DNA of 48,907 nucleotides from Promethearchaeati archaeon. Its GTDB lineage: Archaea; Asgardarchaeota; Heimdallarchaeia; JABLTI01. Position numbers and translations under genes: made by a program. The stretch is from NCBI GenBank assembly GCA_013166835.1, contig JABLTI010000044.1, forward strand, positions 1 to 48,907, given 5' to 3'. Positions 19 to 29,466 of this stretch are shown piece after piece; position 1 is the stretch's first letter; each line of letters starts with the position of its first letter. Under the pieces are notes generated by a model that saw only the letters and a list, made by a program, of their open reading frames with translations, was not told the origin of the DNA and searched no databases.

Positions 19-123
19 GCACAGGTTGTCTAGCGGTTGGGCGGCGGACTGCAGATCCGCTTTACGTGAGACATGCTGGGTAACTCCCTTCATGCACGAA
101 TTCGAATCTCACCCTGTGCTCCA
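19..123 (+). tRNA. tRNA-Cys(GCA) with 30-nt intron in the T arm and encoded CCA
   Basis: Acceptor stem GCACAGG(19-25)/CCTGTGC(113-119), discriminator T120, CCA 121-123; anticodon arm GCGGA-CT-GCA-GA-TCCGC (44-60); T arm GTGAG(66-70)/TTCGAAT/CTCAC(108-112) restored by removing 71-100. Confidence 0.95.
71..100 (+). other. tRNA intron at position 53/54 with bulge-helix-bulge-type splice motif
   Basis: Central helix CGTG(65-68)/CACG(95-98), 3-nt bulges AGA(69-71) and AAT(99-101), intron helix CATG(72-75)/CATG(91-94); cutting after the second bulge nucleotide on each side gives a perfect T arm. Confidence 0.9.
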
Positions 124-19068: not shown

Positions 19069-19579
19069 TTTAGTTTTTCATTGGAAATCTTCGGTGAGAA
19101 TTTCCACGAATTTTCACAAACAGATTATAGTAATCACTACTATTATCTAAAGAAGACATTAAAAATCCCCGATTTTTTTCAGATTGATAGAAAAATATTT
19201 GACTAAGTTATTTTTTATATAAATAAGAAAATAATATAATGTGTCAATGTCAAAAAGTCGATATCAGGGGATGAAAAGTAGAAATATTCGTGTCTTTAGT
19301 CGAGTTAAATTCGTCGGTCAAAGTCCATATTCGTTCTCATTAGTGCATTATTCAAATTAAACCACAGGTTACATCATCATTTACTGATATATTACATGCT
19401 GTACATAGCATACAGATAGTAGGAAACACTAAAAGAATAAAATCCGTACCTCGTAGTAATATTTAAAAGAGCATAATGAGCGAAATGTCTGTGTCGCTCT
19501 TCCAGCTGGAAATAAAAAAAATTATCTTTTTGACATGAAAAAATCGTCCTAGAGGACTGTGTCAGTGAGGCAAAACTGA

Positions 19580-22942: not shown

Positions 22943-25621
22943 ATGGCATTTAAGTTACCAAAAATTATCGATGCTTTACAATTCGGTCTCTTATCTCCAG
23001 ATGAGATAAGAAAAATGAGTGTTGTCAGAGTAATAACCGCAGACACTTATGATGAAGACGGAACAGCAATTCCCTCTGGATTAATGGATGGTCGTTTGGG
23101 CACTATTGATCCTGGTCAACGTTGTAAAACATGCGGCAATAGAGTTGGCGAGTGTGAAGGCCATTTTGGTCATATAGAACTTGCTCGTCCGATTGCTCAT
23201 GTAGGTTTTAACAAGAAGATATACAAAATTCTCAGAGCAATTTGTCGTGAATGCAGTAGAATTCTTCTAACTGAAGAGGAAGTCTATGAAAACAAACAAA
23301 AAATTCTCAAGTATGAGAAACGATGGGAACAAGCTAATACAGATCTTATAAATGAAATTCTCAAGAAAGCTGCAAAAGCTGATACTTGTCCACATTGTCA
23401 AGCTCTACAATCCAAAATAAAACTCGAAAAACCAACAACATTCTTTGAAGAAATTAAAGCAAGCAAAAAGAGCAAAGTGATTGAACGAAAGAAATTATCC
23501 CCTACAGATGTTAGAGATCGGATGGAAAGAATCTCTGATGATGATTGCTTATTACTTGGGATAAATGCTAAGCATGCTAGACCAGAATGGATGGTTTTGA
23601 CTGTCCTACCCGTTCCACCAGTTGCTATGAGACCAAGTATTACTTTGGAATCAAGTATTCGTTCTGAAGACGATTTAACACATAAACTAGTTGATATTAT
23701 TAGAATTAATCAGCGATTAAGAGAGAATATAGAAGCTGGTGCACCCCAACTTATTGTAGAAGATCTTTGGGAGTTGCTTCAGTATCATGTTACCACATAT
23801 TTCAATAATGAAGTATCTGGAATCCCTCCTGCAAGACATCGTTCTGGAAGAGCATTAAGAACACTCACTCAAAGACTGAAGGGTAAAGAAGGTCGTTTTA
23901 GAAGTAACCTTTGTGGTAAACGTGTTGACTTTTCATCCCGAACTGTTATTTCTCCAGATCCTAATCTAAGTATCAATGAAGTTGGTGTTCCACAAGAAAT
24001 TGCTATGCAATTAACAATTCCTGAAAAAGTTACAGAATGGAATATTGAAGAATTAAAAGAATTAATAATGAGAGGTCCAGCTAATCATCCAGGTGCTAAT
24101 TATATAATTAGACAAGAAGGATTACGTATCGATTTGCGTTTCGTAAAAGAGAAACGAAATGTTGCTGATTCTTTGGAACCTGGTTTCATAGTTGAAAGAC
24201 ATTTAAAAAATGGTGATATTGTCCTTTTCAACAGACAACCATCACTTCACAGAATGTCAATTATGGCTCATAAAGTCAAAGTAATGCCATATAGGACATT
24301 TCGTTTGAATTTATGTGTTTGCCCTCCCTATAACGCAGATTTCGATGGAGATGAAATGAACCTTCATGTTCCTCAAAGTGAGGAAGCTCAAGCAGAAGCG
24401 AGAACCCTTATGTTAGCACAAGAACAAATTTCTTCACCAAGATATGGTGGCCCACTTATTGGAGCAAATTGGGATTATATTTCAGCTTCTTATCTTCTAA
24501 CAAAGAAAGATTCATTCTTCTCAAGGAAAGAAGCTATGCAATTCATCATCTCTTCCGGATTCAACAAAGACTTACCAACACCCGAAATCACAGAGCCAGA
24601 AGAACTTTGGAGCGGCAAGCAAATATTCAGCTTATTTATACCTGAAGATACTCACTATACTAATACTGCTAAAATCTGCCAAAAATGTGCTGAATGTTTA
24701 GAAGAAAAATGTGAACATGATGCATATGTAACAGTAAGAAATGGTGTTCTTAAAACAGGCGTTATTGATAAAAAAGCAATAGGTTCACAACAAGAAGGAA
24801 GTCTCTTAGGTAGAATCCTCATTGACCAAGGGACCGATGTTGCCAGAGAATTCTTAGATGCCATTACAAAGTTGTTTATTCGTGTTCTCTCTTACAAAGG
24901 CTTCACAGTCGGCTTTTGGAATGTTGATATTCCTAAAGAAGCGAAGACGCGAATTGATGAGATTCTAGATGACGCTGAAAAGGAAACAAGAGATACAATT
25001 GATGCTTATAGACAAGGCATACTTGAAAGATTACCAGGAAGAACAGAAGACGAAACACTGGAAATGAAGATTATGGAAATACTCTCTATGTCTAGATCAA
25101 CTGCAAGTGATGTTGCTGGTGAGTATTTAGGAATGGAAAATGAAGCAGTAATTATGGCTAAAACCGGCGCTCGAGGTAGTATGTTAAACTTAGGGCAAAT
25201 GGCGGCTTGCTTAGGACAGCAATCCGTTCGTGGTGCAAGAATTAAAAGAGGATTTAGAGATAGAACATTACCGCATTTCAAACCAGGAGCTCTAGATGCT
25301 CCTTCAAGAGGTTTCGTTAGAAATAGTTTCAGACGAGGATTAACTCCGATAGAATTCTTTATGCATGCTTGTGGTGGCCGTGAAGGTCTTGTTGATACAG
25401 CAGTTCGTACTTCCACGAGTGGTTATATGCAGAGACGGCTTATACATGCTTTACTGGATATCAAAGCTGAATATGATGGTACTGTAAGAGATGCTAATGG
25501 TGAGATTATCCAATTTATTTATGGTGATGATGGTATTGATCCTGCCAAATCAGAGCATGGAAAATCAGTTAATATTGATGCTGTCATTGATAGAGTCCTA
25601 AAAACAACAGTAGAGGAATAG
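22943..25621 (+). CDS. rpoA1: DNA-directed RNA polymerase subunit A' (Rpo1N)
   Basis: CEGHFGHIEL, GKRVDF, NRQPSLH, catalytic YNADFDGDEMN, GREGLVDTAVRT; GGAGG RBS upstream. Confidence 0.99.
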   Translation: MAFKLPKIIDALQFGLLSPDEIRKMSVVRVITADTYDEDGTAIPSGLMDGRLGTIDPGQRCKTCGNRVGECEGHFGHIELARPIAHVGFNKKIYKILRAICRECSRILLTEEEVYENKQKILKYEKRWEQANTDLINEILKKAAKADTCPHCQALQSKIKLEKPTTFFEEIKASKKSKVIERKKLSPTDVRDRMERISDDDCLLLGINAKHARPEWMVLTVLPVPPVAMRPSITLESSIRSEDDLTHKLVDIIRINQRLRENIEAGAPQLIVEDLWELLQYHVTTYFNNEVSGIPPARHRSGRALRTLTQRLKGKEGRFRSNLCGKRVDFSSRTVISPDPNLSINEVGVPQEIAMQLTIPEKVTEWNIEELKELIMRGPANHPGANYIIRQEGLRIDLRFVKEKRNVADSLEPGFIVERHLKNGDIVLFNRQPSLHRMSIMAHKVKVMPYRTFRLNLCVCPPYNADFDGDEMNLHVPQSEEAQAEARTLMLAQEQISSPRYGGPLIGANWDYISASYLLTKKDSFFSRKEAMQFIISSGFNKDLPTPEITEPEELWSGKQIFSLFIPEDTHYTNTAKICQKCAECLEEKCEHDAYVTVRNGVLKTGVIDKKAIGSQQEGSLLGRILIDQGTDVAREFLDAITKLFIRVLSYKGFTVGFWNVDIPKEAKTRIDEILDDAEKETRDTIDAYRQGILERLPGRTEDETLEMKIMEILSMSRSTASDVAGEYLGMENEAVIMAKTGARGSMLNLGQMAACLGQQSVRGARIKRGFRDRTLPHFKPGALDAPSRGFVRNSFRRGLTPIEFFMHACGGREGLVDTAVRTSTSGYMQRRLIHALLDIKAEYDGTVRDANGEIIQFIYGDDGIDPAKSEHGKSVNIDAVIDRVLKTTVEE

Positions 25622-25634
25622 ATTGAGGTCGTAA

Positions 25635-26864
<1,230 letters not shown>

Positions 26865-26975
26865 AAAGATGAGTAGACTTCACTTTTCAATCGAAGGGAA
26901 TAATTTAAATTCCCCTTTTATTGGGATATGAATAAAATCGTTACTTTGAGAAAACAATTGTTGGAGAAAAGTAAT

Positions 26976-27284
26976 ATGTCATATGATTTAAACAGAGAAA
27001 TACAAATAATTGCCAGAACTGGCAAAAAGGATTATGGAATAAATAGAGCTATTAAAGCAACAAAGCTTGGTAGAGCTCAACTAGTTATTTTAGCCAATAA
27101 CTGTTCTGAAGATAAAAGAATCCAAATTGAGTATTATTCTAAACTAGCAAACATTCCTATTGTAATATACACAGGAACTGGTTATGACCTTGGTGCTCTT
27201 TGTGGGCGTGGACATGTCGTTTCAGCAATGTCAGTTTATGATCCCGGAGACAGCAAAATAATTAGAATGCTGAAGAAGAAATAA
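26976..27284 (+). CDS. rpl30e: 50S ribosomal protein L30e
   Basis: RTGK...G, LVILANNC, IEYYSKL, DLG.LCGR, DPGDS.I; operon position; start chosen at in-frame ATG 26976. Confidence 0.95.
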   Translation: MSYDLNREIQIIARTGKKDYGINRAIKATKLGRAQLVILANNCSEDKRIQIEYYSKLANIPIVIYTGTGYDLGALCGRGHVVSAMSVYDPGDSKIIRMLKKK

Positions 27285-27322
27285 AAATCAATTTTGATTT
27301 GAATTGTAGGTCGTGTTATAAA

Positions 27323-27766
27323 CTGTCAAGTGGGATTAGACTTTCTATCGATGAAATGAAAACTATCAACGTCTTTATTAGTGTTACAAAGATTAGCCCA
27401 AAAGATTGCATAATTGATAAGAAACTCGATAGGATTATTTTCTTAGTTGGTAGAGGATCAGTTGGTACAGCTATCGGACGACAAGGATTACACATTAAAA
27501 AACTGAAATCTATTCTTGCTAAAGATATAGAAATCGTTGAAGACGATGAGAAACCTGAACGTTTCATAAAGAACTCCCTTATACCTGCAATTGTGGAAAA
27601 AGTTGTAGTAGTCAGAAGAAAAGACAAGCATGATTTAGCATTCGTTACAATAAAACGTGGTCAAAGAGGATTAGCAATTGGTAAAGATGGTCGCAATATA
27701 GAGCGCGCTCGATTGCTTGCGAAAAGACATTTCGATATTGAGAACGTTATTATTAGTGATCAATAA
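27323..27766 (+). CDS. nusA: Archaeal NusA (two KH domains); start uncertain (CTG 27323 or TTG 27299)
   Basis: AIGRQG and AIGKDGRNI KH motifs; position after rpl30e. Confidence 0.93.
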   Translation: MSSGIRLSIDEMKTINVFISVTKISPKDCIIDKKLDRIIFLVGRGSVGTAIGRQGLHIKKLKSILAKDIEIVEDDEKPERFIKNSLIPAIVEKVVVVRRKDKHDLAFVTIKRGQRGLAIGKDGRNIERARLLAKRHFDIENVIISDQ

Positions 27767-27868
27767 TTTCTTCACCCAAATTTTTTTTGATTTTTTTTTG
27801 AGAAACCATAAGAATACTTTCGGTTAACTCTTTTCCTTTTCTTTTTATAATGAAATACTCATATTAAA

Positions 27869-28007
27869 CCATAGATGAAGGACGCATTTACTTTTGGGTT
27901 GATACCTCGGCAATGTCATCTCCTCGGCAAGAGAAAAAACTAAAAGCGTTCTTCCATCATGTGCACTCGGCACGCACTTTGCTACCATGTATGGGGGCCC
28001 CTTTTTT
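27869..28007 (+). ncRNA. Candidate structured non-coding RNA / leader with three CUCGGCA-loop hairpins
   Basis: Nested complementary segments with G-U pairs on the + strand, CTCGGCA at 27906, 27923 and 27966, TTTTATAA at 27843-27850 upstream, oligo-T at 28002-28007. Confidence 0.55.
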
Positions 28008-28059
28008 GCCCCTTATACTTTCTTAAAGAAAACGACCCTATATATGTGAGGATAAATGA

Positions 28060-29466
28060 ATGCAGAAAATAGATAGAAAAATTGTTCCTCGAGGATACCA
28101 AAAGCTCATACTCGATCTAATAAAATTACACACTTCTAAGAAGAAAAGTGTTTTACTTGAACTTGATTGTGGTATGGGGAAACGTGTCATTACGTATGAA
28201 ATATTAACTACACTTTTTCCTGAGAAACGCATTCTCTTAGTAGTATTATCCTCTTCTTCTCTTCATGAAACCAAAGATTTTCTGCAAAATGAATATGGTG
28301 GGGTTGAGGGATTTAATTGGATAGGACCTGGTATTAGTAATTCATATGCACAAAAAATCCTGAAGGAATCAAGAGTGATTCTTTGTACTCCACAAAAACT
28401 ATCAAATGTAATAAAAAGAGCTCCTAAAGATTTTGAAGATACTTTTGATATTATTATAATAAATGAAGTTGACAAATTGATAAGACGTATGGGATCTAGG
28501 AGAGTTCTTGTTTATCCTTGGACTGATTTAATAACCCAGCTTGGTTCTTCATTATACATTGGAATGTCTGGTACACTCAGAGATTCTCATTATGTATTGG
28601 ATCAAGATCAATTGGAAATAAGAAAAGAATTAGACACATTAGTTGAATTCATTCCGGATGTTGAGCTTATTTTCATGGATTATCTTGCGGGAACTGATGT
28701 AACGAAGTTTACAAAGGAAACCGAAATAGAAGCAGTTCCTGTAGAGGATCCTGCTATATCTCAGATTTCTGAAATTATTGGTCAGCAACTCAGAGAAGCA
28801 TATGCAGCTATCGAGGCGGAACTAAGAGAAGAAGCTCCTGAATATTTAGGACAAGTGAAAAAAACTGGTCCTCAAGCATTACTCCAAGCCCCTGTTTCGG
28901 AATCATTGCGTGGCAAGGCACAATCTCTTACTTTGACAAGAAAATATTTGTTCTCAATGATGCCCGCACAATTGAAAAAATTTCTTTGGAAACTTCCTGG
29001 TGTGGAAGAAAGTATGTTACCAACAACGCCTCAAAAAGTAATCAAAGCAGTTGAAATTGCAAAAAATACAAACAAAACTGTTATTCTATGTTCATATATA
29101 CGAACAGCAAAAACTATTGTTTCTCATTTAACAAAAGTAAACATAAAGCCATTCCTACTCACAGGACAAATATTTGATAAAAATGCTGTTTTGCAAAGTT
29201 TTCGGAAATATGATGGAAAAGCAGCTATAATAATGTCTCCAGTAGGAGAACGAGATATTGATTTGCCAGAAGCAGACAAACTAATAATATTTGATTGTGT
29301 GAGAACTACAAAAACAGTTTATCAGCAGCTGAAAAGGATAAGAGGGGGGATCGGTGTCTTTCTATATTACAATAATTCCTATGAAGGAAAGAAAGTTCAA
29401 TCTGTGATCTCAGATATTTTAGAACGATATCCTTGGAGTACAAAATTAGCGACGAATAAAAAATAG
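28060..29466 (+). CDS. SF2 helicase-like protein (Hef/FANCM-like core) with degenerate motifs
   Basis: Q motif PRGYQ, motif I LDCGMGKR, TPQ, motif II INEVD, motif III GMSGT, motif V SPVGERDIDLP, motif VI QQLKRIRG. Confidence 0.75.
   Translation: MQKIDRKIVPRGYQKLILDLIKLHTSKKKSVLLELDCGMGKRVITYEILTTLFPEKRILLVVLSSSSLHETKDFLQNEYGGVEGFNWIGPGISNSYAQKILKESRVILCTPQKLSNVIKRAPKDFEDTFDIIIINEVDKLIRRMGSRRVLVYPWTDLITQLGSSLYIGMSGTLRDSHYVLDQDQLEIRKELDTLVEFIPDVELIFMDYLAGTDVTKFTKETEIEAVPVEDPAISQISEIIGQQLREAYAAIEAELREEAPEYLGQVKKTGPQALLQAPVSESLRGKAQSLTLTRKYLFSMMPAQLKKFLWKLPGVEESMLPTTPQKVIKAVEIAKNTNKTVILCSYIRTAKTIVSHLTKVNIKPFLLTGQIFDKNAVLQSFRKYDGKAAIIMSPVGERDIDLPEADKLIIFDCVRTTKTVYQQLKRIRGGIGVFLYYNNSYEGKKVQSVISDILERYPWSTKLATNKK

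Follow-up and report, generated by a model that had tools for sequence, protein, structure and literature searches.

In Saccharolobus islandicus (Sulfolobales), the promoters of strongly induced DNA-damage genes share a 20-bp consensus, AATAGTTTCRGWDTACTCWS, with the core ANTTTC (Sun et al. 2018, PMC6061795). The Orc1/Cdc6 paralog Orc1-2 binds this DNA-damage-response element (DDRE box), without which 4-nitroquinoline-1-oxide (NQO) fails to induce these genes (PMC6061795; PMC12490963). Here, we describe a predicted small-RNA gene with a box of this type in an Asgard archaeon of the class Heimdallarchaeia. The gene lies on contig JABLTI010000044.1 of the Promethearchaeati archaeon assembly GCA_013166835.1, and "the window" refers throughout to the whole stretch of this contig that was analyzed (48,907 nucleotides). 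The source assembly (G000, in which the window is contig C103) comprises 3.56 Mb with 33.7% G+C and is 85% complete and 6.8% contaminated. A preliminary description of the window had marked an unannotated, structured RNA-like element at 27869-28012, and this stands: the element is conserved and has its own promoter, and we regard it as a real, independent small-RNA gene as predicted from its sequence. By our analysis it holds two conserved motifs, not three, and the main new result is the DDRE-like box, a conserved box upstream of TATA that would link the gene to a DNA-damage regulon and that the preliminary description had missed.

The DDRE-like box, AATACTTTCGGTTAACTCTT, an invariant element of 18-20 bp, occupies positions 27813-27832 of the plus strand, 10-11 nt upstream of the TATA box of the RNA gene. 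It matches the S. islandicus consensus at 17 of 20 positions, and its core, ACTTTC, fits ANTTTC. The conserved box upstream of TATA reads GAATACTTTCGGTTAACTC; AATACTTTCGGT is invariant in all ten genus sequences, and both G011, which represents a second genus, and the metagenomic members described below have it as well. The TATA box itself (TTTTTATAAT, 27842-27851, plus strand), noted as a TATA-like sequence in the preliminary description, is A/T-rich and falls in the same alignment columns in 10/10 genus sequences, while the corresponding box in G011 is TTTAAATAG.

The box recurs across the source genome. At no more than two mismatches it has 17 sites, compared with 0-7 for ten shuffled motifs; with one more degenerate position, it has 30 sites at the same tolerance, 24 of them intergenic (no open reading frame (ORF) on either strand), and most are followed by a TATA-like box 4-15 nt downstream. 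Twenty ORFs of at least 90 aa located downstream of box sites were scanned with Pfam. Ten encode replication or repair proteins: RPA, a Rad50-like SMC ATPase, two UvrA-like proteins, a Cdc6/Orc1 paralog, RadA, two DinB-type polymerases, Nre, and a GINS subunit. The others include a TPR protein, a Mrp antiporter subunit, a GH57 enzyme, a glyoxalase, a radical-SAM protein, and four unknowns. The remaining one of the twenty, preceded by a box with a single mismatch, is a 352-aa protein gene (G000:C106:35035-36090 (-), L182) with a weak TFIIB match of 53 bits (curated cut-off 384), which may be a divergent TFB paralog recalling the damage-induced TFB3 of Sulfolobus.

Sites of the form ATACTTTCGGTnAnCTC that mark this repair and replication regulon lie on contig C106 at 19255-19271 (-) and 26430-26446 (+), and elsewhere in G000 at C19:21094-21110(-), C23:4314-4330(-), C30:20072-20088(-), C114:6814-6830(+), C252:9030-9046(-), C117:5464-5480(+), C253:81385-81401(-), and C94:9360-9376(-). 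Two regions, C114:6814-7956 and C252:7835-9046, are nearly identical copies of a DDRE-plus-DinB promoter and gene; the pair may reflect duplication or strain heterogeneity in the assembly, whose contamination is estimated at 6.8%. Beyond the source genome, the box also stands 5' of RPA in G011 and 5' of RadA in G022, a member of another family. By a crude count, the box is enriched in family f1, the Heimdallarchaeia family that carries the RNA, and in family f4, and not in families f2 and f3. A keyword search of the open-access literature, covering articles without their supplements, returned no report of the DDRE in Asgard archaea.

Three Cdc6/Orc1 paralogs are encoded in G000. The paralog on contig C253 (L257:1429-2664 -) is initiator-like, matching 2V1U at 1e-104, and adjoins the DDRE-preceded GINS gene. 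The second, G000:C106:26528-27727 (+), has a DDRE in its own promoter and is closer to 1FNN, 2V1U, and 2QBY_A (4.5e-50 to 1.7e-41) than to the Orc1-2-type protein 1W5S (7e-20). The third, found on C23 (L259:1399-2580 -) at ~3 kb from radA, is very divergent. Each of the three is a candidate for the Orc1-2-like regulator. By its sequence, the RNA promoter would be that of a putative member of the Orc1-2/DDRE regulon, and its box places the RNA gene in a DNA-damage-type regulon that would link Heimdallarchaeia to the Orc1-2 system of Sulfolobus.

We determined the distribution of the element with BLAST and with two covariance models. BLAST found it in 10 of the 11 other f1 genomes, namely nine of ten in the genus (77-99% identity) and the single genome of the second genus, G011; it was found in none of 29 genomes from other Heimdallarchaeia families. 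The f1 genome without the RNA is G001, which is 64% complete. Model R1, built from ten genus sequences, recovered the same 10/11 f1 genomes. Its sole match among 71 other genomes of the class, in G067, lies inside a 557-aa ORF and was discarded as a false positive, and among 151 genomes sampled from the phylum only the two f1 members of the sample matched. Model R2, which adds the second genus, agreed with R1 and elsewhere gave only matches with E > 0.01; the weak ones (E 0.014-0.064) fell in G067 at the same place as with R1, in G015, in G051, and at a second place in G004. In metagenomes, a 22-base pattern picked out 12 loci. Seven of them are true further members; the remaining loci (L166, L169, L171, L172, and L173) are chance matches in GC-rich, coding-like sequence. 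The loose pattern CCTCGGCAN{5,14}CCTCGGCAA, run over genome contigs, gave at least 120 chance matches in unrelated, mostly GC-rich bacteria.

Comparison with known RNA families, proposed as a check in the preliminary description, yielded no match for the element in Rfam. At the gathering threshold, Rfam 15 reported only a tRNA in the whole window, and a permissive scan of 27700-28100 with E values up to 10 gave five weak matches of 8-19 bits against gathering thresholds of 45-100. The only one of these that overlaps the element, DLEU2_2 (27831-27910, minus strand), has no base pairs, and no riboswitch or leader family matched the element in the same interval. Guide RNAs were likewise considered and set aside: CUGA (D box) and UGAUGA (from the C box, RUGAUGA) are, by eye, absent from 27874-28012, and the conserved ACA of an H/ACA RNA is missing after hairpin P3, with no overlapping Rfam snoRNA match. 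We conclude that the predicted RNA gene is novel, family-restricted, and a member of no described family. The tRNA match at the edge of the window (19-120, plus strand; 32.5 bits) spans 102 nt and probably contains an intron; ARAGORN reported no tRNA in the window.

The structure was assessed on 14 aligned homologs (alignment A5, comprising 13 genus-level sequences and G011), with counts read by eye and with alignments A1 and A2 used in addition. The best-supported part is a long stem, P1, in which the 5' strand GAUGAAGGACGC (27874-27885, plus strand) pairs with 27946-27958, formed by GCGUUCUUC, a bulged C27955, and AUC. The stem AAGGACGC/GCGTTCTT given in the preliminary description is confirmed and extends into this longer helix. 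Among the 11 pairs of P1, three are invariant, two vary on one side, five change on both sides, and the last deviates through unpaired cells only; the share of paired cells is 94%, and P1 appears in the minimum free energy (MFE) fold of 13 of the 14 homologs. At the inner end of the stem, for instance, A-U replaces G-C; at the outer end, GAU/AUC gives way to GUU/AAC and UAA/UUA, and the second genus has one A-U pair more. Over all helices together, as counted on a model-fitted alignment, 93.3% of cells are paired, compared with 45-58% when partners are slid, and seven pairs (five of them in P1) change on both sides, compared with 2.6 in shuffles (0/500 reach 7). On a MAFFT alignment made independently from the ten genus sequences, RNAalifold counted three compensatory pairs among 29. 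Covariation thus supports P1 well.

Other helices of the preliminary description fared less well once homologs were compared. Its outer stem CCATA-G-ATG/CAT-G-TATGG was dropped: the 5' arm begins upstream of the predicted transcription start site, compensation is absent, and the stem competes with the covarying GAU/AUC extension of P1. The first small hairpin, UGAUA/UGUCA, is intact in 9/14 sequences and shows no compensatory change, and the second, UCUC/GAGA, never varies and is broken in 1/14. The inner stem UUUUGG/CUAAAA pairs a U-run with an A-run, for which covariation is uninformative. The proposed look at covariation came out in favor of P1, with no covariation in the small hairpins and no compensation in the outer stem.

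P1 closes a ~60-nt A/U-rich region that holds two copies of the motif CCUCGGCAA. Copy 1 (27905-27913, plus strand), with GAUA directly 5' of it, has CTCGGCA exact in 13/14 homologs; copy 2 (27922-27930, plus strand), 17 nt away, has it exact in 14/14 and lies in a 15-mer, UCAUCUCCUCGGCAA (27916-27930), that is invariant in all 14. The predicted unpaired probability is 0.50-0.86 for copy 1 and 0.50-0.85 for copy 2, compared with an RNA mean of 0.38-0.51, and both copies are predicted to be exposed in all 14 homologs.

The third CUCGGCA is a different matter. All strings listed in the preliminary description are present where it placed them, including CTCGGCA at 27906-12, 27923-29, and 27966-72, and there are 48 copies of CTCGGCA on both strands of the whole assembly, with no other two within 1 kb; three copies in 67 nt are therefore far beyond chance. 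Across the homologs, conservation holds for the first two sites only; the third (27966-27972) is half loop and half stem of hairpin P3 and is exact in 4/14. What is conserved there is the hairpin GUGC-ACUCG-GCAC (P3, 27961-27973, plus strand; five pairs, 95.5% of cells paired), so that the third proposed hairpin survives as GUGC-N5-GCAC, while its claimed distal GCAC arm is found in 7/14. P3 loop variants are ACUCG, ACCCG, ACCCA, AUUCA, ACCAA, and ACCUC, and the hairpin is absent in G011; the loops (ACCUCGCA, ACCCGGCA, and others) look like a decayed third motif copy. The picture of constant loops on variable stems applies only to this genome and its nearest relatives, and the small stems show no covariation.

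Downstream of P3, a single-stranded stretch, ACUUUGCUACCAU (27976-27988, plus strand), varies hardly at all among the 13 genus-level sequences, while G011 lacks it. It is followed by the terminal hairpin GGGGC/GCCCC (27994-28012, plus strand; 88.6% of cells paired), correctly noted before as bracketing an oligo-T run, with the U6 run (28002-28007) in its loop. Across the genus, this loop run is T5-T6, and in G011 a T8 run lies 3' of the terminal hairpin, not in the loop. The 3' end of the RNA is probably within this hairpin. The plus-strand assignment also stands: P1, P3, and the terminal hairpin all contain G-U pairs, which fit the plus strand only, since a minus-strand transcript would have A-C mismatches in their place.

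The RNA element lies in the 293-nt gap between an archaeal nusA gene and a helicase gene. Upstream, by Pfam assignment, are rpoA1 (22943-25621), rpoA2 (25638-26864), an L30e gene (26928-27284), and nusA, which encodes two KH domains (27299-27766); downstream is a superfamily-2 ERCC4-related helicase gene (28060-29466, ATG at 28060), whose 74-95% identical proteins carry the source label "Candidatus Heimdallarchaeota archaeon". Immediately 3' of the nusA stop codon (27766), T8 and T9 runs at 27781-27799 (plus strand) are likely oligo-T terminators of the rpoA1-rpoA2-L30e-nusA operon, as oligo-T works as a terminator in archaea, and the RNA would therefore be a separate transcription unit. Archaeal TATA boxes lie at a usual distance from the start site, and on this basis the TATA position places the transcription start site at ~27874, the first base of P1. 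The predicted RNA thus extends from an inferred start at 27873-27875 to the T6 run (27874-28007, plus strand; ~135 nt), and its transcripts may in part run on through 28012. These boundaries agree with the conservation across homologs, which spans ~27873 to ~28012, and with the covariance-model matches, which span 27869-28017.

The helicase gene has a TATA-like box of its own, CTTATACTTT (28012-28021, plus strand), conserved in the genus and ~40 nt before the ATG, and a Shine-Dalgarno (SD) sequence, GAGGA, at 28048-28052 (plus strand). This TATA-like box overlaps the 3' arm of the terminal hairpin of the RNA. With the terminator of the RNA and the promoter of the helicase interlocked in this way, transcribing either unit could affect its neighbor.

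We consider it possible, with somewhat less than even confidence, that the RNA is a DNA-damage-induced, trans-acting small RNA that acts through its two exposed anti-SD-like motifs. In this scheme, an Orc1-2-like Cdc6 paralog would activate the RNA promoter after DNA damage; the transcript would be stabilized by its fully paired 5' end and its G/C-rich, U-tailed 3' end, and would act in trans through two exposed motifs resembling the anti-SD tail. A 5' end held in a 12-bp stem, P1, such a 3' end, and two predicted exposed C/G-rich 9-mers suit a stable trans-acting RNA. Most likely, the RNA would block translation by base-pairing to ribosome-binding sites that are rich in purines and read (UU)GCCGAGG(AG), and one candidate target is a family-specific, DDRE-controlled gene, G000:C176:19837-20709. 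We rank this antisense action first, modestly ahead of protein binding, followed by a cis-acting leader of the helicase and then by a DNA operator. The wider proposition, that the RNA is the post-transcriptional arm of an Orc1-2-type damage response common to Asgard archaea and Sulfolobales, silencing SD-led mRNAs and having co-evolved with a lineage-specific protein, is doubtful as it stands.

The case for antisense action starts from the ribosome. The 16S gene is not assembled in G000, and its 3' end was taken from the genus member G010, where it ends in GGAUCACCUCCU with the tail GAUCACCUCCU. The two motif copies, read as GAUACCUC and AUCUCCUC, each resemble this anti-SD tail and are complementary to GAGG, with CCUC matching the 16S tail; GCCGAGG itself is absent from the G010 rRNA locus. 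GCCGAGG occurs 29 times in G000, and a single copy has an RBS-like position, 3-11 nt ahead of an ORF that is 80 aa or longer. It belongs to C176:19837-20709 (-), a 291-aa gene (L191) that itself stands behind a DDRE, and the DDRE-like box is, by eye, kept in the genus orthologs (L260-L270). The 5' region of this gene also contains a conserved GAGACAATGGATTTTTATT. The ribosome-binding site of the C176 gene is complementary to motif copy 2 over 9 nt in G000 and 9-10 nt in G004; in G003 the match reaches 11 nt, as it does in G007 if one G-U pair is counted. A complementary site of 9-11 nt is thereby present in 4-5 of ten genomes, about half of the genus, and the duplex energies beat most shuffles in five of ten genomes (z -1.6 to -2.8).

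The 291-aa protein is obscure. It matched nothing in Pfam, NCBIfam, PADLOC, or PHROGs, a PDB sequence search gave nothing usable, and a protein-atlas search offered only non-specific helical or TPR-like leads. Its family counts 31 representatives among 1.84 billion proteins and, within the class, a query with it gave matches only in the RNA-bearing family (11/83 genomes), a co-occurrence that is weak evidence among close kin.

Several observations weigh against this interpretation, beginning with the gene itself. The alignment on which pairs were counted was fitted to the model and favors that structure. The MFE of the RNA is not exceptional (z = -1.17; 24/200 shuffles fold as well), and that of the minus strand is likewise unexceptional (z = -1.24). 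The contigs of four metatranscriptome sets cover nusA at 27450-27644 and the helicase from 28048, leaving 27645-28047 uncovered, although contigs cannot show absence. The position of the genus T-run within the terminal hairpin loop makes the 3' end and read-through into the helicase uncertain, and the predicted damage induction derives from the resemblance of the box to a motif of a distant archaeon. As for the target, the C176 site is degraded in G005 and absent in G001, G008, G010, G009, G006, and G011, the RNA motif is invariant in genomes where the site is missing or degraded, and in the other five genomes the duplex z-scores are no better than shuffles. Genome-wide, near-perfect complements of the two 15-nt motif regions number 67 and 65, compared with 10-85 for shuffled 15-mers, and a seed-plus-duplex scan placed no ribosome-binding site in its top 25. 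Finally, two identical 9-mers are equally suited to a protein-binding site. Other target searches were also negative: exact and one-mismatch complements of the 9-mer in G000 showed no ribosome-binding-site pattern, the complement of ACUUUGCUACCAU found no near-complementary ORF start region in the genome, and long-window duplex folding against DDRE 5' regions was uninformative.

In the next explanation, a dimeric or two-domain RNA-binding protein would occupy the two single-stranded 9-mers at the top of the long stem as tandem sites and would be titrated or recruited in the damage response, with the RNA serving as a sponge, decoy, or scaffold. We regard this as rather unlikely, though a serious competitor. 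It would account for the invariance of UCAUCUCCUCGGCAA and ACCUCGGC across 14 sequences while their flanks drift, for the predicted exposure of the motifs, and for the failure to find a motif-complementary target conserved family-wide. Candidate partners are at hand in the two-KH NusA encoded directly upstream, in two LSm genes, and in several DDRE-controlled proteins of unknown family. Against this explanation, neither CsrA nor Ro60/TROVE was found in the 85%-complete G000 assembly. In addition, 9-15 invariant bases are long for a typical single-domain protein site, and both the anti-SD resemblance and the match at the C176 ribosome-binding site would have to be coincidence.

An effect in cis, suggested in the preliminary description as a regulatory leader, appears unlikely. 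Here, the element would be the damage-inducible promoter and 5' leader of the ERCC4-type helicase gene, controlling its termination or translation through read-through from ~27874. Both genera share the order nusA-element-helicase, a role in repair is plausible for the helicase, the only DDRE of the helicase gene lies upstream of the element, the T5-T6 run in the hairpin loop would be a weak stop, and other DDRE genes show 171-232 nt from box to start codon. The conserved TATA-like box directly after the element, between it and the helicase ATG, argues for a separate helicase promoter, although read-through remains compatible with it. Helicase orthologs in family f2 (~40% identical) have a different upstream neighbor and a 70-90-nt spacer with a similar box, CCTTTATATAC or CCTTTAAATAC, and dispense with such a leader: both the RNA and the damage box were absent from all 17 loci counted (0/17; 19 were fetched, and L209 and L210 were left out). 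The T8 run after the hairpin in G011 and the lack of any riboswitch or leader family match also speak against a leader, as does, as a weak hint of a separate helicase transcript, one metatranscriptome contig that begins at 28048, just before the SD sequence GAGGA.

It is improbable that the CCTCGGCAA repeats are double-stranded DNA operator sites with an incidental RNA structure. The reverse complement, TTGCCGAGG, does occur just after TATA-like boxes at G000 C42, G011 C3, and G010 C41, and non-self copies exceed a reversed-pattern control in G010, G011, and G001; there is, however, no excess in G000, G006, and G008, most other copies lie within open reading frames, and the TTGCCGAGG site beside TATA on C42 is not conserved even in the subclade. 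Covariation in P1, strand-specific G-U pairs, and promoter geometry all point to a transcribed, folded RNA, and the sites would occupy +32 to +57 counted from the predicted start of the unit to which they belong. The C42 locus merits a separate mention. This intergenic region (G000:C42:8971-9191 (-), L029:1380-1600), which part of the genus shares, carries a TATA box followed by TTGCCGAGGGTTTTGTAG (the RNA motif in reverse complement) and also a repeated TTTTGTAG(T)AAGACGAAAA element; the gene downstream encodes a basic coiled-coil protein of 203 aa. Conservation does not extend to the motif part. The look-alike in G011, TATA plus TTGCCGAGGGTTTTATAG, precedes a small GTPase gene.

Hardly credible, and contradicted by the alignment of relatives, is a small protein gene, for which this genome has a 22-codon plus-strand ORF from an ATG at 27875, at the predicted transcription start as in a leaderless mRNA, and a 47-codon minus-strand ORF (27845-27988): in G006 a TAG ends the plus-strand frame after four codons, the ATG is missing from G008 and G010, G009 has a 1-nt insertion between the motifs that shifts the frame, and indels of 1-5 nt across the alignment break both frames.

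If the proposed damage-induced antisense RNA is real, it would be a damage-regulated non-coding RNA in archaea, found in the archaeal lineage closest to eukaryotes; the same open-access keyword search, again without supplements, returned no report of a damage-regulated archaeal non-coding RNA. Under the wider proposition above, it would also be an archaeal counterpart of an SOS-induced small RNA, with targets that include a family-specific gene of the damage regulon. The narrow distribution of the RNA limits its general importance. The wider interest lies in the box: a Sulfolobales DDRE that is nearly unchanged in a Heimdallarchaeia family, where it marks repair and replication genes together with a TFB-like gene, offers a direct, testable handle on DNA-damage signaling in Asgard archaea, and an Orc1/Cdc6-based damage response may be much older and more widespread than Sulfolobales.

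Among described RNA systems, several bear a partial resemblance to the RNA. The Y RNA/Ro60 (Rsr) module provides a non-coding RNA linked to the radiation and DNA-damage response in Deinococcus, and like it the predicted RNA would be a ~100-130-nt structured molecule with a U-rich 3' end and a damage-response association. Its 5' end, however, pairs with the middle of the RNA and not with the 3' end. TROVE/Ro60 (PF05731) was not found in the 85%-complete G000 and Rfam gave no Y RNA match; with neither Ro60 nor the terminal stem, we do not count the RNA among Y RNAs. CsrB and RsmZ, the analogy drawn in the preliminary description, are small RNAs that likewise repeat a short motif at exposed sites, but the motif here is CCUCGGCAA, not GGA, and only two copies are conserved. 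CsrA (PF02599) was not found in G000 at its 85% completeness and no Rfam CsrB/RsmZ match was obtained; a motif without GGA and a genome in which CsrA was not found set the RNA apart from that group.

The bacterial small RNAs RNAIII and RsaE of Staphylococcus aureus, which carry repeated C-rich, anti-SD-like motifs in unpaired regions, come closer to the antisense action we favor. The RNA described here likewise repeats a short C-rich core, CCUC, in predicted exposed positions complementary to the SD core GAGG, and one candidate target is matched at its ribosome-binding site. It differs in having no sequence or structural homology to these RNAs, an archaeal host, a longer motif (9-15 nt), motif-presenting hairpins without covariation, and a predicted target pairing that is not conserved family-wide.

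For the promoter, the parallel is the Sulfolobales Orc1-2/DDRE regulon. The host here belongs to another phylum, the Asgard archaea, and the regulon is a predicted one; its putative members are RPA, RadA, UvrA, DinB, and GINS genes, as compared with the ups, ced, and tfb3 genes named for Sulfolobales, and a non-coding RNA member was not found there in the literature searched. The likenesses lie in the architecture and in possible regulators: the box stands upstream of TATA and agrees at 17/20 positions, including ANTTTC, and orc1-2 and tfb3 in Sulfolobales have possible equivalents here in a DDRE-preceded Cdc6 paralog and a weakly TFIIB-like gene (PMC6061795).

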